Assembly (NCBI GenBank): GCA_963835905.1
Contig: CAWIHG010000008.1
Coordinates: 258,384-322,383, forward strand
DNA length: 64,000 nt
Direction: 5' to 3'
Source of the DNA: an uncultured delta proteobacterium
GTDB lineage: Bacteria; Desulfobacterota; Binatia; Binatales; Binataceae
Shown here: one piece after another, positions 1,855-47,296 of the stretch
Numbering within the stretch: the stretch's first letter is position 1
Layout of the letters: each line of letters begins with the position of its first letter
Program-made: the position numbers and the translations under genes
The notes under the pieces: model-generated
The model's database searches: none
Told to the model about the DNA's origin: nothing
Seen by the model: the letters and a program-made list of their open reading frames with translations, nothing else

Positions 1855-3152
1855 TGCTCGAAAATCTGGCGGTAGTTGGCTCTGACGGCGAGCCGGCGGG
1901 TAATTCCCTCCAGCCCTATCAGCGCTCGAATCAGAAACACGCCGTGCGCCGGCGACTTGTACAGCTTGTGCTCGACCGCGATCTCACCGACCCGCGTGGC
2001 CTTGCCTACCGCGTCGTATTCCTGCGGGTCGAACTCGCGATCGGACATCATCGGCTCGAACAGGATCCGGATTATCTCGGCCATCGCCCTGCCGTCCTGA
2101 CCGCGCTCGAGCCATCCGAGCTTCAGCATCCCGGATGCGATCGTCGCGTTGTCGTCATCGAGGATTCCCTGCGCGACCAGAAGGTTGGCCTTGCGCACCG
2201 GCTCGGCGAAGCGGCGAATCGATCCGAAGTCCAGGACTCCGAGCAGCGGATGGTAGCTGACCAGAAAATTGCCGGGATGAAAGTCCGTATGCAGCACGCC
2301 GAACTCGAGGATTTGACGCCACAGGAGTTGATGGCATTTGCGCACGACCCATGAGCGCAGTTCCAGTTCGACCACCGGGTTCATCACGTCTTCGAGCGGA
2401 TAGCCGTCCACGTAAGTCATGGTCAGGACCCGGCGCGAGCTGCGCTCGGGCACCAGGCGCGGAATCACGACCTCGGCGTCGTCGGCGAACATCCGCCCGA
2501 ATTGCGTCAGGTTGCGCGCCTCGTTGACGTAATCAAGCTCTTCGCGCAGGCGGGTCTGCAGCTCCGCATAAATCGCGTCGGTGTCGATCTTCTGGCGCAT
2601 CACGTCGCGCGCGATCGCCTGCAAGGTGCGGAGCAGCAGCTTGAGGTTGCTCAGATCCTGCTCGACCGTGTTCTCCACGCCGGGGTACTGAACTTTGACC
2701 GCCACGTCGCCCCCGTCTCGCAGGCGCGCGCGATGCACCTGGCCGAGTGATGCGGCGGCGAACGCCGTCTGATCGAAGCTTTGGAACAACGCCTCGGGCC
2801 GCTTTCCCAGCTCGCGGCGGACCTGCTCGGAGATCATCGCGTAGCTCATCGGCGGAACGCTCGATTGCGTCGCCTTGAGCACCTCGAGCGCCTCTCCCGG
2901 CAACAGGTCCTGGCGCATCGAAAGCATCTGGATGAGCTTCATGAAGGCGCCGCGCAGATGCGTCGAGCTCTCGACGATGCGCCGGGCGTTCTTGATATGC
3001 GTGTCGAGCAGCTCGCGTTCCTGCTCGCTGCGGGAAAGAAATGGACGGCGCAACGAAGTCCACAGGTAGCTGGAGCCGACCTGCGAGGCGAGTTCGCCCA
3101 TTTTCATCGCGCGCCGGGCGCGGCCCTGCGTGATATGCGTGCGTTTGGGCAT
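1830..3152 (-). CDS. ABC1/UbiB (AarF-domain) atypical protein kinase
   Basis: Kinase-like core (VAVKVQYPGV, HTDFHPGNFLV, DFG) typical of the ABC1 family; start ATG at 3152-3150 overlaps the larB-like stop (ATGA). Confidence 0.85.
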   Translation of the reverse strand: MPKRTHITQGRARRAMKMGELASQVGSSYLWTSLRRPFLSRSEQERELLDTHIKNARRIVESSTHLRGAFMKLIQMLSMRQDLLPGEALEVLKATQSSVPPMSYAMISEQVRRELGKRPEALFQSFDQTAFAAASLGQVHRARLRDGGDVAVKVQYPGVENTVEQDLSNLKLLLRTLQAIARDVMRQKIDTDAIYAELQTRLREELDYVNEARNLTQFGRMFADDAEVVIPRLVPERSSRRVLTMTYVDGYPLEDVMNPVVELELRSWVVRKCHQLLWRQILEFGVLHTDFHPGNFLVSYHPLLGVLDFGSIRRFAEPVRKANLLVAQGILDDDNATIASGMLKLGWLERGQDGRAMAEIIRILFEPMMSDREFDPQEYDAVGKATRVGEIAVEHKLYKSPAHGVFLIRALIGLEGITRRLAVRANYRQIFEQCVRRASH

Positions 3153-3925
3153 CAGCCTTCGCCGTCGCGATCGATGCCGGCCCGATTTATCAAGGTGGCC
3201 GCCAGCGCCGCGCCGAAGCCATTGTCGATATTGACGACCGTAACTCCGCTCGCACACGAATTGAGCATCCCGAGCAGCGCGGCGATTCCGCCGAACGCGG
3301 TGCCGTAACCCACGCTGGTCGGTACCGCGATCACCGGACGATCGACGAGTCCCGCAACCACCGACGGCAGCGCCCCTTCCATTCCGGCCACCACGATCAG
3401 CACGCTCGCGCGCCGCACGCCATCGAGGTTGGTCGTCAGGCGATGAATCCCCGCCACGCCGACGTCGAACAGTCGGCGCACGCGATTGCCGAATAGCTCG
3501 GCGCAGATAGCGGCTTCCTCCGCGACCGGGATGTCGGAAGTGCCCGCGCTTATCACCATCACCTCGCCGTGACCACGCGGCGTGATCCGCTCCTTGATCG
3601 CGGTGCCGATGCGGGCGTCGGGATGGTAGCGGAGCGTGCGGATCGCGCGGCGGACGGCGCGCGCCTTTTCGGCGGACAGCCGGGTTACGATCAGATTGGT
3701 GCCCGAGGCGAGCACCCGCTTGCCGATTGCGGAGATTTGCGCGGCGCTCTTGCCCTCGCCAAACACCACTTCAGGTACTCCACGGCGGAGCGCGCGATGG
3801 CGATCGAGCTTGGCGAAGCCGAGATCCTCGAACGGAAGCTCCCGCAGCGAGCGCATCGCGGTCGCGGCCGTCATCCGGCCCGCCGCCACCCGCTCGATAA
3901 TCTGGCGGATGCGCTTTTCGGTCAT
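3152..3925 (-). CDS. LarB/PurE-like (COG1691) AIR-carboxylase-related protein
   Basis: 257 aa with a Gly-rich PurE-like core (VISAGTSD, VVAGMEGALP). Confidence 0.65.
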   Translation of the reverse strand: MTEKRIRQIIERVAAGRMTAATAMRSLRELPFEDLGFAKLDRHRALRRGVPEVVFGEGKSAAQISAIGKRVLASGTNLIVTRLSAEKARAVRRAIRTLRYHPDARIGTAIKERITPRGHGEVMVISAGTSDIPVAEEAAICAELFGNRVRRLFDVGVAGIHRLTTNLDGVRRASVLIVVAGMEGALPSVVAGLVDRPVIAVPTSVGYGTAFGGIAALLGMLNSCASGVTVVNIDNGFGAALAATLINRAGIDRDGEG

Positions 3926-5211
3926 CGCCGCTTTGTGGGTTCCGTCCGCAGCTGCCGGCTGAGCTGCAGGAGCACTTCGCGGACCGCGCGCAGATCGCTG
4001 CGCGTGACCGTAATCGAAGCTTCGCCGACCGTGAGTTGCTCTCCGGGCTGCGGAATGTGGCCGAGACGTTCGAGCACCAGGCCACCGATCGTAGCATACT
4101 CATCCGCCTCGGGCAGCTTGAGGCCGAATCGTTCATTGAGTTCAGCGATCGGCGCGCGGCCCATCACGGCAAGCGTGCGGCGGTTGATCACGCGCGCGAG
4201 CTCTTCGGCTTTGTCGTATTCGTCCTCGATTTCGCCGACGACCTCCTCGAGCAGATCCTCGAGCGTGATTATTCCGGCGGCGCCGCCGTATTCGTCCACG
4301 ATCACCGCCAGGTTCTCTCCGGTGCGCTGAATCGCGACCAGCACTTCGTCCAGCGGCATCGACTCCGGAAAATAGCTGACGGGGCGCGTCACGTCGCGCA
4401 CCGGGCGGGAGAGATCGGGTGCCTGCAGCAGGTCGAAGACGTGCACGATCCCGACGATATCAGTGATTCTGCGGCGAAAGACCGGCAGCCGGCTATAGCC
4501 GACCCTGCGCACCACTTCAATCGCGCGCTCCAGCGACATTTCTTCGGGCACCGCATCCACCCGTACCAGCGGCACCATCGCCTTGCGCGCATCGGCGCGA
4601 GAGAAACGAAAGATGCGGCTGATCATCAGGCGCTCGGCGGGCAGGATCGCGTCGTGCCCGTCGGCGGTGGCGGTTTCGGCGGGCCGGCGAAGAACCAGGC
4701 GCACCAGATCCTCGCGCGAAAGAAACACGCTGGCCGCTTCCGGCGCCACCCCCGCAAGCGCTCGCAGCGCTCGGCTCATCAGCGTTTCCGCCACCAGCAG
4801 CGGCGAAAGCAGCGCGGCCAGCAGGCGCAGCGGACGGGCGGCAATTCGCGCGAACCTCAAGGGATCGCGCAGCGCCAGCATCTTGGGAATCGCCTCGCCC
4901 AGCACGAGCGTGATCGGCGCAAGGATGAACGGCGCCCAATACGATAGCCGCCCTCCCATCGCGTGCAGGAACGCCGTCAGCATCACCGCTGCCAGCACGG
5001 TCGCGAGGTTATTGCTGGTAAGCGTGAGCGCGAGCAGTTGATCGCGGCGTTCGAGCAGAGAGCCCAGCATGCGCGCGGTCTTCTCGCCCTGCTCGCTCTC
5101 CGCGCGCACCTTGAGATCGTCGGCCGAGACCAGCGCGATTTCGCTGGCCGCGAAAAACGCCTGCACGAGCACGCATGCGCCCACCGCCGCGAGCAGCCAC
5201 ACGATACTCAT
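3922..5211 (-). CDS. HlyC/CorC (CNNM) family transporter, DUF21-CBS-CorC_HlyC
   Basis: N-terminal TM DUF21, tandem CBS region and C-terminal transporter-associated domain; 4-bp overlap with the downstream gene. Confidence 0.85.
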   Translation of the reverse strand: MSIVWLLAAVGACVLVQAFFAASEIALVSADDLKVRAESEQGEKTARMLGSLLERRDQLLALTLTSNNLATVLAAVMLTAFLHAMGGRLSYWAPFILAPITLVLGEAIPKMLALRDPLRFARIAARPLRLLAALLSPLLVAETLMSRALRALAGVAPEAASVFLSREDLVRLVLRRPAETATADGHDAILPAERLMISRIFRFSRADARKAMVPLVRVDAVPEEMSLERAIEVVRRVGYSRLPVFRRRITDIVGIVHVFDLLQAPDLSRPVRDVTRPVSYFPESMPLDEVLVAIQRTGENLAVIVDEYGGAAGIITLEDLLEEVVGEIEDEYDKAEELARVINRRTLAVMGRAPIAELNERFGLKLPEADEYATIGGLVLERLGHIPQPGEQLTVGEASITVTRSDLRAVREVLLQLSRQLRTEPTKRR

Positions 5212-6419
5212 CGGCTGAGCCTCACCAGTTCCACGGTCGCGCCGCGCACGCGTTCCACACGCGCGTCCAGCGGGCCCAGGCGCAGGGTTTCGCCGGGCGG
5301 CGGCACGCGCCCCAGCGTGCGGAGCACGATCGCGCTGAGAGTGCGGCCCGCGCCGGGCGCCGCGATCGGCGGCGACAACTGGAGGGCGGCGTTCAGACTA
5401 CGGACATCGATCGCGCCTGAGGCCATCCACTCGCCCGGCTTGATCTCCTGAAGCTCGGGTAAGTCGGTATCGAATTCGTCGCGCAACTCGCCAAACAGCT
5501 CTTCGAGCAGGTCCTCCAGCGTGACGAGCCCGAGCAGGCCTCCGTATTCATCGACCACCAGCGCCATCTGGAAGCGCCCGCGCCGCATCTCGTCGAACAG
5601 CCCGGCAAGCGGTCGGTTGGGCGGGATAAAGTTGGCCGGGCGCAGCAGACGCTCGGTTCGCGGCGCGGTGCCCTCGAGCCGGTGCACGACCAGGTCCTTG
5701 GCGTGCATGATTCCGACGACGTTATCGAGCTTTCCGCGATACAGCGGTACCCGCGAGAAATGCCCGTGCGCTATCTCGGCGGTAAGCTGCGCAAGCGGCA
5801 AATCGACGTCGAGCGCAAAGACCCGGTCGCGCGGCGTCATCACCTCGGACGCGCGCCGCGCGCCGAAGTCGAATACGCGATGGATGAATGCGCGCTCCTC
5901 AGGTTCGATCTCGCCGCCTTTCTCGCCCAGCCGCAGCAGCGCCTTGAACTCAGCCTCCGACACCGGCTCGGGACCCGGAGCAGGCTCCGCCGGTCCGAAA
6001 AAGCGCGCAACCGGGCTCAGAGGTCCGATCAGCGCCGCGAGCGGTCGCGCGGTAAGCCGGGCGACTCCCGCGGGATGCCCGAGCGCAAAGGTTTTCGGCG
6101 TGATATCGCAGAACAGGAGCACGATCACGAGCATTACCGGCGCCGCGACCCACGCGCCGACATCGCCGAGCCAGAGCAGGAACCAGGTGGTCGCAAGGCA
6201 CTCGGCAAACACGTTGCTGGTCTCGTTGATTCCGATCACGACGATCAGCGACTCGACCGGCCGCCGCATCAGGCGCTCGAGCGCGGAGCGAATCGGCCGG
6301 CTCATCTGCTCGCGCAAATGCTCCATCCGCGTCATCGCAAAAATGGCGGTTTCCGACGCCGCGAGCATCGCGCTCACGATGATCAGGACTCCCACGAGAA
6401 TCGGAAGGATTATCAGCAC
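5208..6419 (-). CDS. HlyC/CorC (CNNM) family transporter, tandem paralog
   Basis: Same DUF21-CBS-CorC architecture as its neighbour; 4-bp overlap. Confidence 0.85.
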   Translation of the reverse strand: MLIILPILVGVLIIVSAMLAASETAIFAMTRMEHLREQMSRPIRSALERLMRRPVESLIVVIGINETSNVFAECLATTWFLLWLGDVGAWVAAPVMLVIVLLFCDITPKTFALGHPAGVARLTARPLAALIGPLSPVARFFGPAEPAPGPEPVSEAEFKALLRLGEKGGEIEPEERAFIHRVFDFGARRASEVMTPRDRVFALDVDLPLAQLTAEIAHGHFSRVPLYRGKLDNVVGIMHAKDLVVHRLEGTAPRTERLLRPANFIPPNRPLAGLFDEMRRGRFQMALVVDEYGGLLGLVTLEDLLEELFGELRDEFDTDLPELQEIKPGEWMASGAIDVRSLNAALQLSPPIAAPGAGRTLSAIVLRTLGRVPPPGETLRLGPLDARVERVRGATVELVRLSR

Positions 6420-6423
6420 GCGG

Positions 6424-7452
6424 TCATCCCTGCGACTTCAACTGGTCCCAACCGGTAATCTTTGGTGCGCCGCCGCCGACGATGGCTGCCGACGAACCGC
6501 GGAGAATCCTGCCGATCCGCGCCACGCGGATCCCCAGCCGGCGCGACAGGCGTGCCGGTGAATGGCCGGGGCGCAGGCAGAATAGAAGCTCGTAATCCTC
6601 ACCGCCTCCCAGAGCGAGCGAACGGTCGTCGCCCACCACGGCGCGATAAGCGCGCGAGACGGGAATCGCGGCGGGATCGATTTCGGCGCCGACGCGGCTG
6701 CGCTCCAGGATGTGGGACAGATCCTGCCAGAGTCCGTCGCTGACGTCGATTGCGGCGGCGCTGGGGCGGATCTTCGCGAGCCGGCGCCCCGCCTCGAGCC
6801 GCGCGACCGGCGCCAGGTAGCGGCGCACCAGGTAGCTGCGCACGGAGCCGCGCGCGCGGAGCTGGCCGGCGAGTATCCGCCATCCCGCCGCGGCGTCGCC
6901 AAAGGTCCCGGTGACAAAGATCTCGTCGCCCACGCGGGCCGCGTCGCGCCGCAGAGGGCGCGTGGGCGCGTCGCCCAACAACGCAATCGTAATCGATAGC
7001 TGCCGCGCGGTGGTGATATTGCCGCCGACTATGTCCACCCCCGCGCGCCGCGCCTCGCCCGCCAGACCGGCATAGAGGCGATCGAGGAATCTGACCGCGA
7101 CGCCGGCCCCGACGGCGAGATTCACCACGCACGCGGTCGGCGTGCCGCCCATCGCGGCGATATCGCTCAGGTTGACCGCGAGCGCGCGCGCCCCAATCTG
7201 CTCGGGGGTTCCCCAGGCGCAGTTGAAGTGCACGCCCTCGACCATCGAATCGATCGTGAACAGTTGGCGGGCGCGGCGGGCGCTGAGAATTGCGCAGTCG
7301 TCGCCAATCGAAAGGATCGTCCGGCGGCTTGCCGGCAGGCGTGCACACAGGCGCTCGATCAATTCGAACTCGCCGGGCAGTTTGCGCCCGCCGGCGGAGC
7401 GCCGCACGCGTCTGCCTGTGGTGGAGGGCAAGTCCTCAGGGACGGTCCGCAA
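6424..7452 (-). CDS. thiL: Thiamine-monophosphate kinase
   Basis: EFELIERL...SIGDDCA N-terminal signature and AIR-synthase-related fold; the true start may be internal to the ORF. Confidence 0.8.
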   Translation of the reverse strand: MRTVPEDLPSTTGRRVRRSAGGRKLPGEFELIERLCARLPASRRTILSIGDDCAILSARRARQLFTIDSMVEGVHFNCAWGTPEQIGARALAVNLSDIAAMGGTPTACVVNLAVGAGVAVRFLDRLYAGLAGEARRAGVDIVGGNITTARQLSITIALLGDAPTRPLRRDAARVGDEIFVTGTFGDAAAGWRILAGQLRARGSVRSYLVRRYLAPVARLEAGRRLAKIRPSAAAIDVSDGLWQDLSHILERSRVGAEIDPAAIPVSRAYRAVVGDDRSLALGGGEDYELLFCLRPGHSPARLSRRLGIRVARIGRILRGSSAAIVGGGAPKITGWDQLKSQG

Positions 7453-7543
7453 TTTGCGTTTGGAGGCGAAGATCAGCGGTTACGAGCATGAACATCGATG
7501 ACGCTAATCGATCGGCGCAGAGCGGGCAATAGCAGGCTTCGAA

Positions 7544-8746
7544 TCAGCCGCGCGGGCCGGATCCGGCCGCATCGCGCATCGCCTCCACCGCAAAATCGAT
7601 TTCAGCGCGTGAAATATTGAGGGGCGGCGCAAGCCGCACCACGGTATCGGCATTCAGCGTCCAGTTAACAACTACACCGCGCTCAAGCGTGCGCGCGACG
7701 AAGCCCTGCGCTTCGGCGGCAGAGCGAAATTCTATCCCCGCGAGCAGTCCAAGTCCGCGAACGTCCGCGATCTCGCGGATAGCGAGTCCGCGCAACCGCT
7801 CACGCAGATATGCCCCCGATTCCTGCGCGCTCGCACACAGGTTTTCGCCCTCGATCACCTCGAGCGCCGCAAGTCCAGCGGCGCAAGACAGCGGATGTCC
7901 ACCGAAGGTCGTGATATGCCCAAGCGGAGGGTCATGCGCGAGCGTGCCGATCAGTTCGTCGCGGCCCGCGAACGCGCCCAGTGGAAGCCCGCCGCCCAGC
8001 GCCTTGGCCATCACCACGATATCCGGCACGACCCCGAAGTGCTCGAGCGCAAACATCCGGCCGGTGCGTCCGAAGCCGGTCAGGACTTCATCGAAGATGA
8101 GCAACGCGCCCGCGCGATCGCATCGCGCACGCAGCGCACGAATGAACTCCACACCCGGGATGCGCACGCCGGCTTCGGCCTGGACGGGCTCGATCACCAC
8201 TGCGGCGATGGAGTCGTCGATCGCGTCCAGCGCGCCGCAGTCGCCAAAGGGCAAATGCCGCACGTCCGCGAGCAGAGGCTCGAACGGCGCGCGGAAGGCG
8301 GGGTTTCCGGCCAGCGCCAGCGCGCCGGTGGTGTCGCCGTGGTATGCCCCTTCGAATGCGGCAAAGCCTGCGCGGCCAGTGAATTTGCGCGCGGCTTTCA
8401 TAGCGCCTTCGATCGCTTCCGTGCCGCTGTTGGTGAAATAGACGCGAGACAGTACCGGCGGCAGAAGCGCGGCGAGCCGCGCCGCGAGCCGCACCTGCGC
8501 CTCGATCACGTACTCGCCATAAACCATCACGTGCAGATGCCGGCGCGCCTGCGCATCGATCGCGGCGATTACGCGCGGATGCCCATGACCGAGCGCGGCC
8601 ACGCCGATTCCGGCGATCATGTCGAGGTAGCGCCTGCCGTCGGCCGCGTAGAGCCAGGCTCCTTCGGCGCGATCGATTTCCAAACCGATCGGGCTCGGCG
8701 AGGTCTGCGCGAGATTGCGCGCGAACAGGTCGCGAAGCTCGCTCAT
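7544..8746 (-). CDS. Class-III PLP-dependent aminotransferase (ArgD / omega-transaminase-like)
   Basis: Aminotransferase-III motifs (YFTNSGTEA, FDEV.TGFGRTG, MAKALGGG); ATG at 8746-8744 overlaps the upstream stop. Confidence 0.85.
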   Translation of the reverse strand: MSELRDLFARNLAQTSPSPIGLEIDRAEGAWLYAADGRRYLDMIAGIGVAALGHGHPRVIAAIDAQARRHLHVMVYGEYVIEAQVRLAARLAALLPPVLSRVYFTNSGTEAIEGAMKAARKFTGRAGFAAFEGAYHGDTTGALALAGNPAFRAPFEPLLADVRHLPFGDCGALDAIDDSIAAVVIEPVQAEAGVRIPGVEFIRALRARCDRAGALLIFDEVLTGFGRTGRMFALEHFGVVPDIVVMAKALGGGLPLGAFAGRDELIGTLAHDPPLGHITTFGGHPLSCAAGLAALEVIEGENLCASAQESGAYLRERLRGLAIREIADVRGLGLLAGIEFRSAAEAQGFVARTLERGVVVNWTLNADTVVRLAPPLNISRAEIDFAVEAMRDAAGSGPRG

Positions 8747-9969
8747 CCGCGCCTCGTAATCCAATCCAGAAACGCGCCGCCGCCGTGCCGCCAGGTCACA
8801 GGCGGGGATTGTATCGTGCCGGGAGCCGCCAGATGCGACACGCCGAGCGCACCCAGCAGCGCGCCCAGCTGCGCGGCTTCTGTCTCCGTGGCAGCCACCG
8901 AAAAGCCCTCCAGCCTCCCCTGCGCGGGACGCAACCGCGCCCTCAGGTCGTCCAGGCCCCGGAACTCGCTGACATGGACCGTGCGCAGGCCGGGCGACGC
9001 GGTGAAACTCGCGCCGGGATCGTAGATGACGGTCCACGCAAGCCTGGACCCTTCGAAAATTTCGACCGGTTCGCCGCCCAAACCGCGCCATCGCGCATGC
9101 TCGCGCGCAATCCGCAGCGCCGCGGAATCCTCGAGCTCGAGCGACGCGGGCGGCGGCAGAGCCCGGGCAATCTCGCCCATCTCCGATGAAAGTGCGCGGA
9201 CAAATTCCCGCCCGGCGGGAGCTTCGACGAATACGTGATGCGCCGAGAGGCATCCGAGTTGCTCGAATAGCGTCACGTCGCGCGCGAACCCGCTTGCGAC
9301 GGAGGCTTGCGTGCCGGCGCCGACCGAGCTGCGCATCGCGACCGCGCCGCTCAACCGTGCGCCAAATGCGAACAGCGGCCGCTTAACGTCCAGACTCGCA
9401 ATCGTAGCATCGTCGCCGTACGCGACCATCGCGTCGGTGGCGTCGCGCAGCGGGTTGGTCAACTCCGCCTGCTCGCGCGGCCAGGTGAATACGGAGATTC
9501 GCGCGGCGAGAGCGGGATCGTGCTCGGCAAGGGTGCGCAGGATCGCGCGAAACAGCACCGGCTCGGTGCTCGCGGTTTTGATAATCATCCCGGAGCCCGC
9601 AATCAGCGCGAGCGCGACCTCATGAAGTCCCGCGCCGGCGACGTTCCCCGCCATCACGAAACCCAATAGAGTGCGGCGTTCCGCCGCGCGCGCCGCGAAT
9701 GAACGCAAGGCATCCGCGCTGAACGGCGCGAGCAGCGCATCGAGCGAAGCCTCCAGCAGCGGCTCGGAAAATTGCCGCTGACGCGCGATCAGCGCGATGG
9801 CTTCGCGGCGCGCCGGCAGAGCGTGATGGCGCCATCGCGCGATCACTGCCGCGACGATCTCGGCCGCGTGCTCGGGACTGTGGGGTGTGGCGATGAATTT
9901 ACGGATCCGGGCGGCGGCTTCGGCGAGATCCCCGGGCGTCGGACCTTGGACCATCGTGAGCGCGCTCAC
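8743..9969 (-). CDS. LuxC-like acyl-CoA (acyl-protein) reductase
   Basis: About 400 aa with LuxC-type Rossmann region (GFVMAGNVAGAG) and a candidate catalytic Cys (QLGCLSAHH); GTG start overlaps the luxE-like stop (GTGA). Confidence 0.6.
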   Translation of the reverse strand: MSALTMVQGPTPGDLAEAAARIRKFIATPHSPEHAAEIVAAVIARWRHHALPARREAIALIARQRQFSEPLLEASLDALLAPFSADALRSFAARAAERRTLLGFVMAGNVAGAGLHEVALALIAGSGMIIKTASTEPVLFRAILRTLAEHDPALAARISVFTWPREQAELTNPLRDATDAMVAYGDDATIASLDVKRPLFAFGARLSGAVAMRSSVGAGTQASVASGFARDVTLFEQLGCLSAHHVFVEAPAGREFVRALSSEMGEIARALPPPASLELEDSAALRIAREHARWRGLGGEPVEIFEGSRLAWTVIYDPGASFTASPGLRTVHVSEFRGLDDLRARLRPAQGRLEGFSVAATETEAAQLGALLGALGVSHLAAPGTIQSPPVTWRHGGGAFLDWITRRG

Positions 9970-11120
9970 CGCCGCCCCTCTTGCGCATCCAGCTTAGCGC
10001 CGCGAGCGGCCGCGCTGAACTGATCGACGGCGAGCGCGCATCCGCGCGGCCCGCCTGCCTGCGCGCGGCCCAACAGGCGCACGCGGCTGCCTTCGACAAA
10101 TCCAAGGTCTTCGGTGACGACAGCCGAGACCGAGCACACGTTGGCGAGGTCGAAAAACCCGAGCATCCCGGCGCTCCCGTCCGGCGAGCGCTCGAAGGTC
10201 CGCGGATCGATAGCGACCGGGCGCATCCACTCCGGCGCGATCTTGACGCGCTGGTCCGCCGGCGCGACCTCGGCGCCGTTGAGCGGCGTCGCGTCATAAA
10301 GCTGCGAGCACAACTCCGTCATGCCGTACTCATTGATGACGTGGCTCGGGGGGATCCCGAGGCAGGCGCTCGCGCGTGCAACGACCTCGGCCGGTGCGAG
10401 CGGATCGAGTTGTCCCTTCGGGCCGCCGGTATCCATCATTCGCGACCCTGGCGCGAGCACGAATCCGGCGCCCCCCTCCACCATCCGGTGGAACATCGTG
10501 GCCGCCGCGGCCGTGGTCGCCAGGATGCAAACCGGCGCGGCGTCCGACTCCGCTTCGCGCAGAAAACCGAGCGCGGCATCGAGGTCAACGCGATGGCGGT
10601 CCGCGGCGCACATCACCGCTGCTTCGCCGAACTCCTCGATACACCAGGAGATCATCGTGGACAGCGACGACTCCGGCATCCGGTCCGCCGTCGCGTGAAG
10701 CGCGAGCATCCTCATCCGCGCCCCGTCGGCGAACATCATGCGGTGCAATTGCGCCAGCGCGGAGGCGCGGTATATTTCGGGAAATTCCACGACGTGGCGG
10801 CCGCGGCGCTCGCGCCCGATCGTAGTGCCGCTGGTCAGAAACGCGAGCGAGCCGGGACGCGCGGCGGCGCCGGAGGGCGCAAGGTCCGCGTACTTGAACG
10901 CCGCGGTGTTGACCATCGGTATTTCGTCCGCAGTCGCCACGCTCGTGGGAGTTCTGCCAATCGAGCGGCAGTATTCGCGATAGGGAGGCACTGAATCGAA
11001 CTGGTAAGCGAACACCTCGAGCGCCAACTCGTCGAACTTCGCCCGGTCGGGCCTGTGGATAAACGAAATGACCTTTTGATGGGTTGAAGTCACCGTGGCG
11101 ACGGCGGGCCCCGTCCTCAT
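9966..11120 (-). CDS. LuxE-like acyl-protein synthetase
   Basis: LuxE-family N-terminus (FDELALEVFAYQFDSVPPYREYC) and FLTSGTT adenylation motif; ATG at 11120-11118. Confidence 0.7.
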   Translation of the reverse strand: MRTGPAVATVTSTHQKVISFIHRPDRAKFDELALEVFAYQFDSVPPYREYCRSIGRTPTSVATADEIPMVNTAAFKYADLAPSGAAARPGSLAFLTSGTTIGRERRGRHVVEFPEIYRASALAQLHRMMFADGARMRMLALHATADRMPESSLSTMISWCIEEFGEAAVMCAADRHRVDLDAALGFLREAESDAAPVCILATTAAAATMFHRMVEGGAGFVLAPGSRMMDTGGPKGQLDPLAPAEVVARASACLGIPPSHVINEYGMTELCSQLYDATPLNGAEVAPADQRVKIAPEWMRPVAIDPRTFERSPDGSAGMLGFFDLANVCSVSAVVTEDLGFVEGSRVRLLGRAQAGGPRGCALAVDQFSAAARGAKLDAQEGRR

Positions 11121-11416
11121 TGCATAATGTCGCGGCTTTGGCGGCCGTTCAATGCCGCGAATCGTAGTGCGGGCGATTTGTGAAAAGCCATATTTACCGC
11201 GGGCTTGAAATCATCTAATATCTGTCCGGTGGCGGTGGTGGCGGCGTGGCACCGCAGGCGAAGTTAGCCGGGCGGTTGGTAGCTTCCGCGGGATTTCAAG
11301 CGTATCAAATCGAAAAACTAGCGGCCTCACCGCCGATACGGATGAAACCATTTTTGCAGGCTGTGCGTAATTCTGTTAATAGAACCGGTATCGGCGTCCG
11401 GGAGGGGCTTCGGTAA

Positions 11417-11830
11417 ATGAAGAAGTTCGTAGTGGGCGTAATGGTGGGCTTTCTCGCCAGTTGCGGCTTGGCACTTGCCTCAGCCGGTCTCGGCCACAAC
11501 GGGATGTTCTGGAACAAGCTCAGCACCCAGGCCAAGGACGGCTACGTCAACGGATACTCCGATGCGATGAAGGTCAGCGTCGGTCAGCTCGACAGCCTGC
11601 AGATCGCAGCCGACATGTTCCACTGGAAGGGCGCGCACAAGATCATCAAGCAGCTGAGCGGTGAGCTCTCGATGGCGGACCTGTCGCCGAACCAGGCGGT
11701 CTCCCGGCTCAACTCGCTTTACTCGAATCCGAAATACAGCGAACTCGACCTTGGACAGGCGCTGCAGTTGCTCACGTTGCGAGCCAACGAGACCGCGCTT
11801 CCGGCAGGGCGCGAATCGCACCGGAAGTAG
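11417..11830 (+). CDS. Hypothetical lipoprotein
   Basis: Signal peptide with a lipobox (LASCG); followed by a strong terminator. Confidence 0.55.
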   Translation: MKKFVVGVMVGFLASCGLALASAGLGHNGMFWNKLSTQAKDGYVNGYSDAMKVSVGQLDSLQIAADMFHWKGAHKIIKQLSGELSMADLSPNQAVSRLNSLYSNPKYSELDLGQALQLLTLRANETALPAGRESHRK

Positions 11831-11854
11831 CGGCTCCAATTTTCTTGAAAGCAG

Positions 11855-11887
11855 AGAGGCGAGTCCCCGGACTCGCCTCTTTTTTTC
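11855..11887 (+). terminator. Rho-independent terminator
   Basis: 11-bp perfect stem AGAGGCGAGTC/GACTCGCCTCT, CCCG loop, then TTTTTTT. Confidence 0.8.
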
Positions 11888-11961
11888 TGCACTCGCGGGC
11901 TTTGTCAACGCTTGAAACGCCGCGGGAGCGGTCCTAGCCTGATTGCCGGGAAGTCGTCGTA

Positions 11962-12870
11962 GTGAATGCTCCTATAATCCCGCTCGAGAAAGCGGTGCGC
12001 GCGACGGTCGGGGTTCATTCCCATGTACCGTCCACGCACGTCTCGACCGCGATTGGTCTCGGCACCGATCGCCGCGGCACCGGAACCATCGTCAGCCCCG
12101 ACGGCCTCATCCTCACCGTCCATTACCTGCTGCTTGGCGCGACCAACGTGATCGTGACGCTGCCGGGCGGCGAGCAGCATGAAGCCAGGATTGTCGGCAA
12201 GGATTACGGCACTGGGCTCGGGCTTCTGAAGATCGACGCGGGAGCCCTGCCGCACCTGCAAGTGGTCTCCTCGGAAACCTGCACCCCGGGCGAAGAGGCT
12301 TTCACGGTGGCGAGCCTGGGCGCCGAGAAGCGATGCGCCGATTGCGGCATTATCACCTATCTGGGGCCGTTCGACGCGGTCTGGGAGTTCGTGCTCGAGC
12401 GATGCATCTGCGTCACGGCGTCGTCGCTGCAAATCGGGCTCAGCGGCGGGCCGATCCTTAATCGCCGGGCGCAGATCGTCGGCGTGTCGTACCTGAACTT
12501 CGCCGATCTCGGCCGCGCAATTCTCGGCATCCCCGGCGAATACTTCCTTGCGGTGCGCGACGAATTGCAGCAGCACGGCCAGCGCATTACCGCCGCGCCG
12601 CGCGCCTGGCTTGGCGTGCTGTCCTACACCCTGCGCGAGCACGTCGTGATCGCGACCGTGATGCCGGGCGGACCGGCGGACAAGGCCGGGCTTCAGCAGG
12701 GCGACCTGGTGCTCGCGGTGGACGGCGCCGACGTCAGCGAACGCCGCCTGATGTATGACGCGGTGCGCAGCCATCAGCCAGGCGAACAGATAACGCTCAA
12801 GGTCCTGCGCAATAACCGCATCTACAACGTCGAAGTCCCCGCCATCCGTGCCGAGGACTACTTCGCCTGA
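11962..12870 (+). CDS. Trypsin-like S1C serine protease with C-terminal PDZ domain (HtrA-like)
   Basis: GTGTIVSPDGLILTVHY and GLSGGP catalytic-serine motif, PDZ-like tail. Confidence 0.75.
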   Translation: MNAPIIPLEKAVRATVGVHSHVPSTHVSTAIGLGTDRRGTGTIVSPDGLILTVHYLLLGATNVIVTLPGGEQHEARIVGKDYGTGLGLLKIDAGALPHLQVVSSETCTPGEEAFTVASLGAEKRCADCGIITYLGPFDAVWEFVLERCICVTASSLQIGLSGGPILNRRAQIVGVSYLNFADLGRAILGIPGEYFLAVRDELQQHGQRITAAPRAWLGVLSYTLREHVVIATVMPGGPADKAGLQQGDLVLAVDGADVSERRLMYDAVRSHQPGEQITLKVLRNNRIYNVEVPAIRAEDYFA

Positions 12871-12951
12871 GCCCGCATCCGCCGCGCCCGCAAGTGCGCC
12901 GCAATCGCGGCGCGCATGATCCGATCGCCGATTCGCAAAGGAGCTGCCCCG

Positions 12952-13794
12952 ATGAATGAACCGAGAGCGCGGCTGCGCGAGATGCTCGCGAAGCCCGCGA
13001 TGATCGTTGCCCCGTTCGTGTTCGACTGCCTGCAGGCGCGGCTGGCCGCGGAGGCCGGCTTCGAGGCGGTGTACATGACCGGATTCGGCACCGCCGCCGC
13101 GCGCGGCTATCCCGACCTGGGATTGCTGACGATGTCCGAGATGGCGGCGGCCGCGCGCGCGATCGCGAATTCCGTAGACGTCCCGGTAATCTGCGACGCC
13201 GATACGGGCTACGGAAATCCGCTCAACGTATGGCGCACGGTGCGCGAGTACGAAGACGCCGGCGCGGCGGCGCTCCATATAGAAGACCAGGTCTGGCCCA
13301 AGCGATGCGGCTTCCTGGCGGGAAAGCAGGTCATCCCGATGGAAACGATGGCGCCAAAGGTGCGCTCGGCATGCGACGCGCGCCGCGATCCCAACCTGGT
13401 CATCATCGCGCGCACCGACGCGCTCCAGCCGCACGGATGGGATGAAGTCGAGCGGCGCGCACGCGCCTATCGCGCGGCCGGCGCGGACCTGATCTTCGTC
13501 GACGGCATCCGCACACAGGACGATCTCAGGACGTATGCGGGGCGGCTGGGAGACCTGCCGCTGGTCTATAACGGCGACCTGCTGCCGGTCGATGAACTCG
13601 CCAGGTATCCGTTCAAGCTGACCATCCACATCGGCACGCTGCTCGCAGCGTACCGCACCACGCGCGACACGATGCGCGAGCTGCGCCGCTCTGGGCGCGT
13701 CGGCGCTGGGACGCGGGACGGGACATTCGAGGAATTCGTGCGCACCATGGGCGTGTCCGAGTACCAGGCGCTGGAGCGGAAGTATAAGGAGTAG
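12952..13794 (+). CDS. Isocitrate lyase / PEP mutase family enzyme (PrpB- or carboxyvinyl-carboxyphosphonate phosphorylmutase-like)
   Basis: DADTGYG and HIEDQ..PKRCGF motifs of the ICL/PEPM TIM-barrel family. Confidence 0.8.
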   Translation: MNEPRARLREMLAKPAMIVAPFVFDCLQARLAAEAGFEAVYMTGFGTAAARGYPDLGLLTMSEMAAAARAIANSVDVPVICDADTGYGNPLNVWRTVREYEDAGAAALHIEDQVWPKRCGFLAGKQVIPMETMAPKVRSACDARRDPNLVIIARTDALQPHGWDEVERRARAYRAAGADLIFVDGIRTQDDLRTYAGRLGDLPLVYNGDLLPVDELARYPFKLTIHIGTLLAAYRTTRDTMRELRRSGRVGAGTRDGTFEEFVRTMGVSEYQALERKYKE

Positions 13795-24928: not shown

Positions 24929-25006
24929 CGGGGTGTAGCTCAGCCTGGCTAGAGCACTGCGTTCGGGACGCAGGAGTCGCTGGTTCAAATCCAGTCACCC
25001 CGACCA
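24929..25006 (+). tRNA. tRNA-Pro (anticodon CGG), CCA encoded
   Basis: 7-bp acceptor stem CGGGGTG/CACCCCG, D-arm GCTC/GAGC, anticodon loop TTCGGGA, T-loop TTCAAAT. Confidence 0.8.
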
Positions 25007-26364: not shown

Positions 26365-27597
26365 CTACCGCTCGCGGAAGGCGCGCGAGCGCACCCCCTG
26401 CGAGAAATCGAATTTTCTCCCCTTCTTGAACTCGCTCACGATCCGCCGCGACACCACCATCCGATGCACTTCGTCGGGGCCGTCGTAGATCCGCGCAAAT
26501 CGCGCGTGCCGGTACATCCGGGCCAGCGGCGTGTCCTCCGACACACCCATCGCGCCATGCACCTGGATCGCGCGATCAATAACGTCGTGGAGCACCTTGG
26601 CGCCGTAAAACTTGATGAGCGAGATCTCGACGCGCGCCTCGTCGCCCGCATCGATCTTCGCCGCCGCATTAAGCGTCAGCAGCCGCGCGGCCTGAATTTC
26701 GGCGGCGGAGTCCGCGATCCAGTTCTGAATCGTCTGCTTGTCGGCCAGCGGCCCGCCGAAGGTCTGGCGATTGATCGCCCGATTCACCAGCAGTTCGAAC
26801 GCACGCTCGGCCTGCCCGAGCCATCGCATGCAATGGAAGATGCGTCCGGGGCCCAGCCGTTTCTGCGCGATCTTGAACGCCTGCCCGCGCGGCCCAAGCA
26901 GGTTCGTCAGCGGCACCCGGGCGTCATTGAAGCGCACCTCGCAGTGTCCGCCGGTCGTCTCGCCCATGACCGGGACTACGCGCACTATCTCGAAGCCCGG
27001 GGTGTCGGTCGGCACCAGGATCATGCTGAAGCGCTCGTAGGTCGGCGCGTCGGGGTCGGTCACCGTCATCACCGTCGTGTACGCGGCGTGATTGGCGCCG
27101 CTGGAGAACCACTTGTGCCCGGTGATCACCCATTCGTCGCCGTCCTGGACCGCGCGGGTGCGCAGACCGGTCGGGTCGGCGCCCGAAACCTCAGGCTCCG
27201 TCATCGAGAAGCACGGATAGATGTCGCCGTTGACCAGCGGCATCAGGAAACGCTTTTTCTGCTCGGGACTGCCAAACATGTGGAGCATCGTCGCGTCCTG
27301 GGCGGAATGCGTCCCCAGCCCCGCGATCGCGAATTCGCTGCGCCCGACCAGCTCGTTGACGAACACGTAGGGCATGAATGGAAGCCCGCCGCCGCCAATT
27401 TCCTTGGGCAACCCGAGCGCCCACAGTCCGCGCTCCTTGGCCTTGGCCTGAATTGCCTTCATGGTGCGGCCGGACTCTTCGTCATAGCGCAAAAGGGCGG
27501 GCTCATTTGGATAGATGAATTCGTCAAGGAATTGATTGATCTTCGCGCGCAGGTCCTGGACTTCGGGACTTGCTTCGAGTTCCGCAACGCTCTGCAT
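26365..27597 (-). CDS. Acyl-CoA dehydrogenase
   Basis: ACAD N-terminal, middle and C-terminal domain signatures (YPCFSMTEP..SGAD). Confidence 0.9.
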   Translation of the reverse strand: MQSVAELEASPEVQDLRAKINQFLDEFIYPNEPALLRYDEESGRTMKAIQAKAKERGLWALGLPKEIGGGGLPFMPYVFVNELVGRSEFAIAGLGTHSAQDATMLHMFGSPEQKKRFLMPLVNGDIYPCFSMTEPEVSGADPTGLRTRAVQDGDEWVITGHKWFSSGANHAAYTTVMTVTDPDAPTYERFSMILVPTDTPGFEIVRVVPVMGETTGGHCEVRFNDARVPLTNLLGPRGQAFKIAQKRLGPGRIFHCMRWLGQAERAFELLVNRAINRQTFGGPLADKQTIQNWIADSAAEIQAARLLTLNAAAKIDAGDEARVEISLIKFYGAKVLHDVIDRAIQVHGAMGVSEDTPLARMYRHARFARIYDGPDEVHRMVVSRRIVSEFKKGRKFDFSQGVRSRAFRER

Positions 27598-28539: not shown

Positions 28540-29751
28540 ATGCGGTACAGCGCGCTGAGCGATCTGCGAGTCGTCGATCTGACCCACTTCATCGCGGGAC
28601 CTTACGCAACCAGGATGCTCGCCGATTTCGGCGCGCGCGTGGTCAAGGTCGAGCCGCCGGGCGGCGAAGGCGGGCGCAGGCTCGGCGCCGCGCGCGCGGG
28701 CGCCGATCGCGGAGCGCTGTTCGCCTTTCTTAATACCGACAAGCTCGGCGTTTCGCTTGATCTGAAGAGTGCGCGCGGACGCGATTTGATCCTCGAGATG
28801 CTCGCGAACGCGGACCTGATGGTTGAGAATTTCTCGCCGGGAACGCTGGCGCGGCTCGGGCTTGCCCCCGTCGATCTGCTCGCGCGCTTCCCGCGGCTTT
28901 CAATCGTCTCGATTTCCAATTTTGGCCAGGACGGCCCCGACCGCGACGCACCTCTCGACGATCTGACCCTGTTCGCGCGTGGCGGATGGACCTTTCCCGT
29001 CGGCGAGCGCACCCGCGAGCCGCTCACGCCACCGGGCTCGCTGGCGCAGTATATCGCGGGGCTGTACGGCGCCGTGGGCGCGATGCAGGCAACGATGGCG
29101 CGCGATCTCGGCGGCGCGCGCGGCCAGCACGTCGATATCTCACTGCTCGAGGCGACCGTCTCCACGATGATCTACGAGTCGGTCGGCTTCCAGTACAGCG
29201 GAATCCTGCGCGAGCGCGCGGGCCGCCGCTTTGCGATCGGCCCGTTCCTGATCGTCACGCTCAAGTGCAAGGACGGCTACGCCGGATTGCAGCAGGTGAC
29301 CGACAAGCAGTTCGAAGCGTTGTGCGACCTGATGAACCGGCGCGACCTGCTCTCCGACGCGCGCTTCACCACCGCGCGCGACCGGATGCTGAACAACGAC
29401 GCACTGCTCGAGATCGTGGCGGAATTCTTTCTCGACCGCGAACGCCAGTGGCTTTATCGCGAGGGCCAGGGGCGCGGACTGCCGCTGGTCCCGATCCCGA
29501 GTATCGCGGAGGTGCTCGAATGGGAGCAGACCCGCGCGCGCGGCTACTTCGAGACCATTGAAGATCCCGCGCTCGGCGCGATCCGGATTCCCGGCGCGCC
29601 GCTGCGCCTGATGTCGCATCGCGCGGCCCCCTCGCGGCCCGCGCCGCGCCTGGGCGAGCACAATCGCGAAGTGCTCGGCGCGGGACTGGGCCTGGATTCG
29701 TCCGCGCTGCGCGAACTCGCGGCCGCGGGCACTATTGCGGGGACCATATGA
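28540..29751 (+). CDS. Family III CoA-transferase (CaiB/BaiF)
   Basis: LRVVDLTHFIAGPYATRMLADFGARVVKVEPP N-terminus and conserved Asp region. Confidence 0.85.
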   Translation: MRYSALSDLRVVDLTHFIAGPYATRMLADFGARVVKVEPPGGEGGRRLGAARAGADRGALFAFLNTDKLGVSLDLKSARGRDLILEMLANADLMVENFSPGTLARLGLAPVDLLARFPRLSIVSISNFGQDGPDRDAPLDDLTLFARGGWTFPVGERTREPLTPPGSLAQYIAGLYGAVGAMQATMARDLGGARGQHVDISLLEATVSTMIYESVGFQYSGILRERAGRRFAIGPFLIVTLKCKDGYAGLQQVTDKQFEALCDLMNRRDLLSDARFTTARDRMLNNDALLEIVAEFFLDRERQWLYREGQGRGLPLVPIPSIAEVLEWEQTRARGYFETIEDPALGAIRIPGAPLRLMSHRAAPSRPAPRLGEHNREVLGAGLGLDSSALRELAAAGTIAGTI

Positions 29752-45837: not shown

Positions 45838-46092
45838 ATGGGACTCAGAAAAGTTACCTACTACGACAAACGCGGCACCGCCGAAGTTGAGGTGGACGAG
45901 GACGGCCAGGCCAAACCCTGCGTGCTGGGGGTGAGGTGGGTTAATCCCGACACCTTCGAGACTATCCGGGTCGTCGGTGGCAAGCGCACCGGCCCCAAGG
46001 GCGAGTTGCTGAAAGAAATCCCGCCCACGCTCGACACCAGCGCGTTCGCAATCGAGAACCTGGGCAAAAAGCCGCGGACCTTCGGCAAGTGA
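45838..46092 (+). CDS. Hypothetical small protein (84 aa)
   Basis: ORF whose stop overlaps (GTGA) the downstream CoA-transferase start; no recognisable domain. Confidence 0.4.
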   Translation: MGLRKVTYYDKRGTAEVEVDEDGQAKPCVLGVRWVNPDTFETIRVVGGKRTGPKGELLKEIPPTLDTSAFAIENLGKKPRTFGK

Positions 46093-47294: not shown

Positions 47295-47296
47295 TC

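Follow-up and report, generated by a model that had tools for sequence, protein, structure and literature searches.

A conserved LuxE-like, LuxC-like and class-III aminotransferase gene trio from Binataceae as a candidate module converting carboxylic acids to primary amines

We analyzed a stretch of 64,000 nucleotides (nts) from an uncultured delta proteobacterium of the family Binataceae (GenBank assembly GCA_963835905.1, contig CAWIHG010000008.1, positions 258,384 to 322,383 of the forward strand), hereafter the window, whose G+C content is uniform (~0.62-0.71). Its minus strand carries three adjacent genes, which encode a LuxE-like acyl-protein synthetase, a LuxC-like acyl-thioester reductase and a class-III aminotransferase dependent on pyridoxal phosphate (PLP). 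This trio probably represents one translationally coupled unit for making a primary amine from the free carboxylic acid that corresponds to it. The genes, their junctions and the region upstream of them are as follows.

9966..11120, minus strand: LuxE-like acyl-protein synthetase, 384 aa, ATG start; adenylate-forming, with a predicted C-terminal acyl-cysteine arm
8743..9969, minus strand: LuxC-like acyl-thioester reductase, 408 aa from GTG 9969
7544..8746, minus strand: class-III (PLP) aminotransferase, 400 aa, ATG start; 'type 1', motif (Y/F)HGD138T
9966..9969, minus strand: GTGA junction, where the LuxC-like GTG start overlaps the LuxE-like stop
8743..8746, minus strand: ATGA junction, where the aminotransferase start overlaps the LuxC-like stop
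11121..11416, minus strand: upstream intergenic region, presumed operon promoter and leader, divergently shared with a 137-aa gene at 11417-11830 (+)

The chemistry that we infer, including its direction, cofactors and amino donor, would begin with the LuxE-like enzyme adenylating the acid with ATP through its K235/R352 pair. The acyl group would then be moved to the enzyme's own Cys361 on a flexible C-terminal arm, and this arm would hand it to Cys240 of the LuxC-like protein. There the thioester would be reduced by NAD(P)H to the aldehyde, which the aminotransferase, with PLP on K248, would transaminate to R-CH2-NH2. The first-pass annotation of this DNA had already proposed an order of acid, aldehyde and amine; it is retained here as the best reading of the families, residues and gene adjacency, with the chemistry kept conditional.

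The LuxE-like protein matches the Pfam LuxE family (PF04443) with 38.4 bits against a cut-off of 24.9, over model positions 43-388 of 391, and the LuxE structure 7xc6_E is its sole match in a sequence search of the PDB. With 47.5 bits it does not reach the cut-off of 550 of the NCBIfam LuxE equivalog (NF052244), and judging by sequence it belongs to a distant paralogous subfamily and is not LuxE itself. A search of 1.84 billion cluster representatives returned 2,488 relatives at 50% clustering, 462 of them at E <1e-30 and typically 30-45% identical, which make up a large subfamily well apart from true LuxE. The residues invariant among 36 diverse homologues are G98-T99 (in the SGTT loop), K235, E269 (in EYGMTE), D324, R352 and G360-C361, and 29 Binataceae homologues likewise all have K235, R352 and G360-C361. 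In LuxE, the active-site pair is Lys238/Arg355, and Cys364 within the motif 358-TRxxKGCxLS-367 is acylated and sits on a flexible arm that reaches Cys296 of LuxC (PMC9157457). The spacing between Arg and Cys is 9 in both proteins, from R352 to C361 in the LuxE-like protein and from Arg355 to Cys364 in LuxE (PMC9157457). In the AlphaFold2 (AF2) model of the LuxE-like protein (pLDDT 83.9), the tail 355-369, which bears C361, is disordered. The top Foldseek matches of this model are PaaK1, PaaK2 and BT_0428 (probability 1.00, TM score ~0.6), and the nearest solved structures are PaaK-type ligases for small aromatic or short acids; LuxE was also compared with PaaK1 in the paper on the LuxC-LuxE structure (PMC9157457).

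The LuxC-like protein scores 145.9 bits with the Pfam LuxC family (PF05893; cut-off 21) and 53.3 bits with the NCBIfam LuxC equivalog (NF052251), short of the cut-off of 750. Its only credible sequence match among solved structures is LuxC (7xc6_A). C240 aligns with the catalytic Cys296 of LuxC (with Phe297 next to it) in a QQAC-F motif; none of 29 Binataceae homologues departs from it, and all ~60 LuxC-like proteins have it, whatever their arrangement class. The AF2 model (pLDDT 93.3) has LuxC 7xc6_A as its best solved fold (TM score 0.79, E 6.6e-19), above all ordinary aldehyde dehydrogenases. As judged by eye, the hydrolytic Glu of ordinary aldehyde dehydrogenases has no counterpart in the aligned LuxC-like motif, and the same is true of LuxC. 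The LuxE-like and LuxC-like proteins thus appear from their sequences to work like LuxE and LuxC without being their orthologues.

Inspection of the gene junctions located the three co-directional minus-strand genes and their 4-bp overlaps (9966-9969 and 8743-8746) where the first-pass annotation had placed them, and the Pfam profiles gave exactly the LuxE, LuxC and aminotransferase III families that it had named, with catalytic residues kept. Although a lone 4-bp overlap is commonplace, its recurrence across related loci goes beyond chance: a start within an NTGA overlap was found at 22/33 LuxE-LuxC junctions, 16/20 LuxC-aminotransferase junctions and 9/13 aminotransferase-LuxE junctions. The overlaps may also reflect the fixed stoichiometry that the first-pass annotation had read from them. 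The database gene call starts the LuxC-like gene at ATG 9954 (403 aa), 5 codons after GTG 9969. The overlapping GTG 9969 is, on comparison of sequences, the likelier start, because the Binataceae orthologues mostly have an ATG at this -4 overlapping position.

The aminotransferase matches Pfam Aminotran_3 (PF00202) with 354 bits and remains under every NCBIfam cut-off in the profile search. The ArgD/LysJ-type cut-offs are not reached (PRK03244, 371.5 vs 457; TIGR00707 for argD, 360.7 vs 410; LysJ, 320 vs 700), and type-1 orthologues from other phyla likewise fall short of them; the scores for putrescine aminotransferase (YgjG/PatA, 311 vs 612) and bioA (267 vs 405) are also too low. The best relatives in the PDB are LysJ of T. 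thermophilus (1vef, 293 bits) and the E. coli putrescine aminotransferase (265 bits). In the alignment with LysJ, three residues are kept: K248 (in AKALGGG), which we take to be the PLP lysine, and E191 (in QxE(G/A)G) with the C-terminal R371, presumably the Glu/Arg pair of 2-oxoglutarate-dependent class-III aminotransferases. Since this pair is typical of 2-oxoglutarate users, glutamate is the probable amino donor. In the recognition motif, the window has YHGD138T, LysJ has FSGRT and YgjG has FHGKS, so that D138 replaces the Arg of LysJ and the Lys of YgjG. The Arg of (F/Y)xGRT binds the distal carboxylate of the substrate (R180 in ornithine aminotransferase (OAT), R141 in GabT, and likewise in ArgD). 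An invariant Asp at the carboxylate-binding Arg of ArgD, LysJ and OAT argues for an aldehyde without a distal carboxylate, which may instead bear a cationic or hydrogen-bond-donating group.

The conservation of the trio was examined in two directions. In the forward test, one genome per GTDB species was scanned with the LuxE-like alignment, which gave 80 loci from >10 phyla; together with three Binataceae contigs (L001, L004, L005), 83 loci were annotated with purpose-built hidden Markov models. An aminotransferase was assigned to type 1 (A1) when it scored at least 400 bits to that of the window. A class-III aminotransferase lies directly beside LuxE/LuxC in 35/83 LuxE-like loci, across phyla and in three arrangements (E, LuxE-like; C, LuxC-like; A, aminotransferase).

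E-C-A1, 14 loci: aminotransferase of the window's type
E-C-A2, 5 loci: a different class-III type
A-E-C, 16 loci: aminotransferase upstream
E-C, 37 loci: without aminotransferase
E only, 11 loci: without aminotransferase, several loci being cut short

The E-C-A1 class includes Binataceae, other Binatia (L010-L012), Eisenbacteria (L017), Myxococcales (L039), Nitrospiria (L052) and a metagenome-assembled genome named 'delta proteobacterium' (L069). In L011, L012, L039 and L052 the trio is self-contained between opposite-strand genes such as prfB or uppP, and in L017 its neighbors are co-directional. In a rough neighbor-joining tree, LuxE-like proteins that share an aminotransferase type and an arrangement largely cluster together. 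The motif (Y/F)HGDT, and hence Asp138, is present in 17/17 type-1 aminotransferases found via LuxE; the other LuxE/LuxC-linked aminotransferases have YHGL(S/G) or YHGMS together with EPIQGRGG and are without the C-terminal Arg. No LuxE/LuxC-linked aminotransferase of any type attains an NCBIfam cut-off.

In the reverse test, metagenome contigs were scanned with a 44-residue aminotransferase fragment around YHGDT, and 80 loci were annotated. Fifty aminotransferases proved close to that of the window, 37 of which have LuxC and/or LuxE directly adjacent, mostly in the order E-C-A and in four cases A-E-C. Among the 13 without a partner, a contig end cuts 12 on at least one side, and L103 is the only one that lacks a LuxC/LuxE partner although at least 700 nt are available on either side. 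By comparison, LuxC/LuxE neighbors were found for 0/30 other class-III aminotransferases (Arg-type, Lys-type and BioA-like) from the same scan. The adjacency of the three genes, on which the first-pass annotation had built its proposal, is therefore conserved in related genomes and also across phyla, and it is more than lineage synteny, because the trio also occurs as an isolated unit in other Binatia, Myxococcota and Nitrospiria. The evolutionary coupling of the three genes is, like their family membership, their folds and the retention of catalytic residues, a direct observation.

The Asp-type, partner-linked enzymes fall into a single clade in a neighbor-joining tree of the aminotransferases, and the clades of Arg-type (LysJ among them) and Lys-type enzymes are sister to it; the linked Leu/Met-type enzymes (types 2 and 3) make up a second, separate clade. 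Since the two linked types form separate clades, two distinct aminotransferase clades appear to have become dedicated partners of LuxE/LuxC-type proteins. In IMG, the window's enzyme is named acetylornithine/N-succinyldiaminopimelate aminotransferase, and the name "acetylornithine aminotransferase" is probably wrong, because Asp always stands at the carboxylate-binding Arg of ArgD/LysJ.

Gene fusions were also observed. The LuxE-like representatives include LuxE-LuxC fusions, fusions of a zinc-dependent alcohol dehydrogenase (Zn-ADH) with LuxE (P0265, P0285, P0289) and an aminotransferase-LuxE fusion, P0339. The last has no close fused relatives; it occurs on two assemblies, and the next gene, which is LuxC-like, overlaps it by 4 bp. 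A second aminotransferase-LuxE fusion, P0404, comes from a low-G+C organism, aligns to the window's LuxE-like protein over 365 residues and retains the SGT, DTGGxKG, NEYGMTE and RGCSL motifs. That P0339 might be a singleton artefact was dismissed, since two assemblies carry it and P0404 is independent. With fusions to LuxC, Zn-ADH and aminotransferase, the LuxE-like family appears to behave as an acid-to-aldehyde core with exchangeable aldehyde-consuming partners.

These data bear directly on the suggestion that the aminotransferase is simply the housekeeping acetylornithine/succinyl-diaminopimelate enzyme and that its proximity to LuxE/LuxC is functionally meaningless. The IMG annotation, the ArgD/LysJ identity of its best NCBIfam and PDB relatives and its location within a Binataceae housekeeping gene run agree with such a role. 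However, the argD cut-offs are missed (361 vs 410 and 371 vs 457), all members have Asp at the carboxylate-binding Arg and form a clade apart from the Arg-bearing ArgD/LysJ, the linkage holds in both directions across phyla with no Arg-type aminotransferase having such neighbors, and the junctions are translationally coupled, with aminotransferase-LuxE fusions in addition. We therefore regard this explanation as largely refuted and hardly credible. No second class-III aminotransferase was found among the annotated genes of the window (all genes at 1-22.3 kb and ten larger ones beyond).

With respect to the substrate, the first-pass annotation had favored a long-chain fatty acid, with a long-chain alkylamine or aminolipid precursor as the product. 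The sole characterized LuxE/LuxC pair uses myristic acid (PMC9157457), TamH and TabA transaminate C12 aldehydes (PMC9594044; 10.1101/2025.08.11.669332), and the second linked aminotransferase clade (types 2 and 3) has Leu/Met, which is apt for a hydrophobic aldehyde. Against this, the surroundings of the type-1 trio in 48 loci show no conserved gene for a LuxD-type thioesterase, an acyl carrier protein or an acyltransferase and no conserved lipid gene, and the recognition position of the window's aminotransferase holds Asp, not a hydrophobic residue. The solved proteins that come nearest in fold to the LuxE-like protein have small aromatic or short acids as ligands, and it would be unusual for a pathway to end in a free fatty amine that no downstream enzyme takes up. 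Residues of the long hydrophobic cleft of LuxC were tried as a substrate clue and set aside, as only N162, S166, T169, Y291 and F297 could be aligned and those few are not conserved. A His116-Glu117 pair at the cleft site is uninformative on the substrate, because it is specific to Binataceae and not common to the other type-1 loci. In view of the absence of any lipid gene traveling with the trio, the PaaK-type folds and the Asp, the fatty-acid and alkylamine part of the earlier proposal is not supported, and we now consider it doubtful, if a little more plausible than the alternative that follows.

This alternative is an acid that also bears an amino or other cationic group (e.g. an omega-amino acid, or an amino acid reacting at its alpha-carboxyl), which would give a polyamine-like or vicinal diamine without a decarboxylase. 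It would fit the invariant Asp, which takes the place of an Arg in ArgD/LysJ and of a Lys in putrescine aminotransferase, the latter enzyme being the second-best solved relative. BioA aminates a carbonyl next to an amine and also has YHGDT, and BioA-like proteins with YHGDT were recovered in the metagenome scan with the aminotransferase fragment; a literature search on the role of BioA Asp147 gave nothing useful. Moreover, the trio lies among housekeeping genes and not in a biosynthetic gene cluster, and two CNNM transporters with weak family-level matches to the polyamine exporter PaeA follow it in the Binataceae gene run. Yet one residue and analogy carry everything here: the CNNM link is confined to Binataceae, the PaeA scores are ~100 vs 500, free amino-aldehydes readily cyclize, and no polyamine gene is conserved nearby. 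We thus regard a diamine product as unlikely. With equally little confidence, the trio could be taken as a widespread, unrecognized primary-metabolic route that spends ATP and NAD(P)H on making a specific small amine directly from a carboxylic acid, one candidate being a diamine or vicinal diamine formed, with no decarboxylase, from an amino-substituted acid. Such a route would range over Binatia, Myxococcota, Nitrospiria, Eisenbacteria and many soil metagenome lineages, would have its own Asp138 aminotransferase clade and, outside Binataceae, would also be accompanied by a 116-aa tetratricopeptide repeat (TPR) protein and an acidic 91-aa protein.

The trio could also run in the catabolic direction, from amine to aldehyde, then to a thioester on the LuxC-like protein and to acyl-AMP and ATP via the LuxE-like protein, so as to conserve energy. 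Transaminases and thioester-forming dehydrogenases are reversible in principle, and the order aminotransferase-LuxE-LuxC occurs in many loci. However, such a direction is without precedent for LuxE/LuxC, the alcohol dehydrogenase-LuxE-like fusions are better explained by a reductive branch point from acid to aldehyde to alcohol or amine, and the LuxC cleft may carry the aldehyde off the active center and so prevent reversal (PMC9157457). We therefore consider catabolic use very improbable.

Several points weigh against the conversion of acid to amine that we favor. Identity of the LuxC-like protein to LuxC is ~16%, and the LuxE and LuxC equivalog scores are low (47 vs 550 and 53 vs 750). Because the closest solved folds of the LuxE-like protein are CoA ligases, coenzyme A (CoA) is conceivable as the acyl acceptor and may, judging by the model, replace the protein's own Cys. 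Transamination is reversible, and the acid-to-amine direction is assumed only because the partner enzymes consume ATP and NAD(P)H. The meaning given to Asp138 would follow, by analogy, from the role of the Arg in OAT, GabT and ArgD. In addition, the neighbors of the type-1 trio include no conserved gene for a fourth enzyme that would provide the substrate or use up the product, and a literature search found no characterization of the trio, of the LuxE-like and LuxC-like proteins or of their Pfam/InterPro accessions.

Compared with known systems, the trio most resembles in its first two steps the LuxC-LuxE fatty acid reductase (PDB 7XC6; PMC9157457). Both comprise two proteins: the first is the adenylating enzyme, which has a Lys/Arg pair and, at its C-terminus, an arm for the acyl-Cys, and the second is a reductase of aldehyde-dehydrogenase fold whose catalytic Cys receives the acyl group. 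The Pfam families, the best fold match to LuxC and the adjacent, coupled gene order are likewise shared. In contrast to that system, the window's proteins are remote and far under the NCBIfam equivalog cut-offs, the LuxC-like protein is ~70 residues shorter, luxD and luxAB are lacking, the aldehyde is proposed to go to an aminotransferase and not to a luciferase, and the substrate need not be a fatty acid. Characterized routes to amines include TamA/TamH of tambjamine YP1, from thioester to aldehyde to amine (PMC9594044), and TabE/TabA of tambjamine BE-18591, from fatty acid to amine, TabE lying in the sequence-similarity cluster of LuxC (10.1101/2025.08.11.669332). Their logic is the same, with ATP used to form a thioester, NAD(P)H to form the aldehyde and PLP-dependent transamination with glutamate to form the primary amine. 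They differ from the trio in using an acyl carrier protein or CoA thioester, where the proposed carrier of the trio is the synthetase's own cysteine, in lying within specialized-metabolite clusters, where the trio stands alone among housekeeping genes, and in having an aminotransferase of another clade; TamH is, in addition, an aminotransferase fused to a thioester reductase of the short-chain dehydrogenase/reductase (SDR) type.

The ArgB-ArgC-ArgD and LysZ-LysY-LysJ systems are also alike in logic, converting a carboxylate through an activated acyl group and a semialdehyde to an amine on an N-protected amino acid, and the clade of ArgD/LysJ is sister to that of the window's aminotransferase, LysJ 1vef being its best solved relative. 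They employ a kinase and an acyl phosphate, whereas adenylation and a Cys thioester are proposed for the trio, and a reductase of ArgC fold, whereas that of the trio has the aldehyde dehydrogenase fold; their substrate-carboxylate Arg is Asp in the window, whose enzyme also scores under the argD and LysJ cut-offs. In cascades of a carboxylic acid reductase (CAR) with an omega-transaminase, and in reductase-domain release from nonribosomal peptide synthetases (NRPSs; e.g. myxochelin MxcG/MxcL), reduction of an acid or thioester with ATP and NADPH is followed by an alcohol or amine branch. In CAR and NRPS enzymes, one polypeptide combines the SDR-type reductase domain with a carrier domain and its phosphopantetheine arm; the trio, by contrast, consists of separate small proteins with a cysteine arm. 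The LuxE-like family resembles CAR/NRPS branching in having Zn-ADH fusions and SDR neighbors on the one hand and aminotransferase neighbors on the other. Homologues of LuxE/LuxC, themselves uncharacterized, are also on record from flagellin glycosylation islands, where an acyl carrier protein, FabG and a CoA ligase occur alongside them (PMC7874193, PMC4875605). We would class the trio as a probable acid-to-amine module that needs no carrier protein and has an aminotransferase clade of its own; its proposed chemistry has characterized precedents and is not surprising in kind.

Other genes recur beside LuxE/LuxC-like pairs. A 255-aa SDR that passes the 3-oxoacyl-ACP reductase model accompanies the pair in Bacillota and Proteobacteria, a DrrA-type ABC ATPase with further conserved genes in Gemmatimonadota (L014-L059), and a five-gene run of MetY, a CoA-binding protein, LuxE, LuxC and aminotransferase occurs in Vulcanimicrobiota, Verrucomicrobiia and Acidiferrales. 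Loci of such other arrangements are L022, L031, L034, L035, L066, L067 and L015 (Neobacillus, Priestia, Pantoea, Bosea) and L033, L036, L050, L058 and L065. MetY and the CoA-binding protein were rejected as module members, as MetY passes a housekeeping model and operon packing is the probable cause. In the A-E-C class (mostly Myxococcota and Spirochaetales), HPPK (folK) lies divergently upstream in 7 loci (L041, L044, L049, L055, L062, L063, L073), which may be lineage synteny.

Outside Binataceae, the sole recurrent neighbors of the type-1 trio are a TPR protein of 116-127 aa, with the conserved C-terminus ...EAEAEAAKARVLDWKRQL, and the acidic 91-aa protein without a Pfam family that usually comes with it. 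The pair lies divergently beside the trio in at least 18 non-Binataceae loci (43-90% identity) and is absent from the window and from Binataceae. The TPR gene is located at L010:3205-3552(-), L011:6591-6941(-), L039:6545-6901(-) and L069:6387-6770(-), and in about 14 metagenome loci, including L086, L087, L089, L092, L097, L104, L111, L112, L114, L117, L122 and L126; the 91-aa gene is, e.g., at L011:6306-6581. The two proteins may be an accessory or regulatory pair.

The nearest homologues of the window's LuxC-like and LuxE-like proteins carry the name Candidatus Binataceae. Downstream of the trio on the same strand lie thiL (passing TIGR01379), two CNNM/CorC genes, larB (passing NF033503) and an ABC1/UbiB-type kinase, a run that the first-pass annotation had correctly described as a continuation of the same strand. 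The gap between the aminotransferase and thiL is 91 nt (7453-7543) and contains no terminator-like site. In Binataceae relatives (45-52% LuxC-like identity) the whole block is kept from pyruvate phosphate dikinase (PPDK) through the ABC1 kinase, except that a gene for a HisKA/HATPase histidine kinase separates the aminotransferase gene from thiL.

L001:10495-11868: histidine kinase gene
L003:10675-11952: histidine kinase gene
L004:10560-11864: histidine kinase gene

The genes from thiL to the ABC1 kinase were not accepted as part of the module, because the trio stands between opposite-strand genes in L011, L012, L039 and L052; their linkage is Binataceae-only synteny, with the histidine kinase inserted in other members. 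Within the run, the tandem CNNM/CorC genes (3922-5211 and 5208-6419, both minus strand) overlap by 4 bp and match the PaeA model with 96-106 bits against a cut-off of 500, a weak family-level resemblance that could be coincidence or a hint at the product of the trio. The larB gene (3152-3925, minus strand) scores 291 against the NCBIfam cut-off of 175, and its position between a CNNM transporter and the ABC1 kinase is conserved in Binataceae. LarB is the carboxylase of nickel-pincer cofactor synthesis; no LarC or LarE was found among the annotated window genes.

Upstream of the trio and divergent from it are the 137-aa gene, which has no family, and the two genes listed below, followed by PPDK on the minus strand.

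11962-12870, plus strand: trypsin-PDZ protease
12916-13794, plus strand: protein of the phosphoenolpyruvate (PEP) mutase/isocitrate lyase superfamily, closest to methylisocitrate lyase, under cut-off

The 137-aa protein (11417-11830, plus strand) has an N-terminal signal-peptide-like segment, MKKFVVGVMVGFLASCGLALASA, and matches no Pfam or NCBIfam family; its gene is divergent upstream of the trio in all Binataceae loci (59-77% identity), and a strong terminator-like hairpin (11853-11882, plus strand) lies 3' of it. A 574-aa open reading frame (ORF) at 11905-13629 on the minus strand matches no family; it is almost certainly spurious and antisense to the two plus-strand genes listed above, which are the real ones. 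The PEP-mutase-superfamily gene was rejected as a link to phosphonates, as it falls under every equivalog cut-off with methylisocitrate lyase nearest, and the Asp of the aminotransferase would not suit a phosphonate.

Within the intergenic region at 11121-11416, a sigma-70-like site was located at 11379..11350 on the minus strand. Nucleotide islands 5' of the LuxE-like start (~11123-11156, minus strand) are kept among 7 Binataceae loci, one of them being GG(G/C)ATTGAAC, a ~14-nt spacer and CG(A/C)CAT(C/T)AT, and farther upstream are the islands GGTAAATA and CGCCACC. These islands may be an operator or leader element. A leader riboswitch (e.g. for thiamine pyrophosphate, given thiL downstream) was discarded, since 7300-11900 matched no Rfam family, not even when E values as high as 1 were allowed; in the whole window, a single tRNA gene (24929-25003, plus strand) is all that matches Rfam at the gathering threshold.

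As the first-pass annotation had stated, no luciferase is encoded nearby: luxA/luxB and luxD were not found at 1-22 kb of the window, where all genes (1-22315) fall in other families, and none of them recurs beside the trio in 48 loci. Elsewhere in the window there are two tandem pairs of family-III CoA-transferase genes, four paralogues in all (28540-30998 and 46089-48499, plus strand), and an acyl-CoA dehydrogenase (26365-27597, minus strand), which suggest an extensive organic-acid and CoA-ester metabolism in this organism.

If the proposed chemistry is true, the trio would be a compact system of three small soluble enzymes, with no carrier protein, for converting a carboxylic acid to a primary amine, a conversion that biocatalysis now assembles from large CAR enzymes and omega-transaminases. 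It would also correct the systematic mis-annotation of an aminotransferase clade as "acetylornithine/succinyl-DAP aminotransferase" (DAP, diaminopimelate), and it is a pointer to an uncharacterized amine metabolite of several poorly studied soil phyla. The position of the trio among housekeeping genes suggests a role in core rather than specialized metabolism. As a lead for enzymology and annotation correction the finding is solid. More generally, LuxE/LuxC-type reductases form a large modular family for which bioluminescence is only one use, and in which the partner would decide the fate of the aldehyde, toward amines, alcohols or elsewhere.

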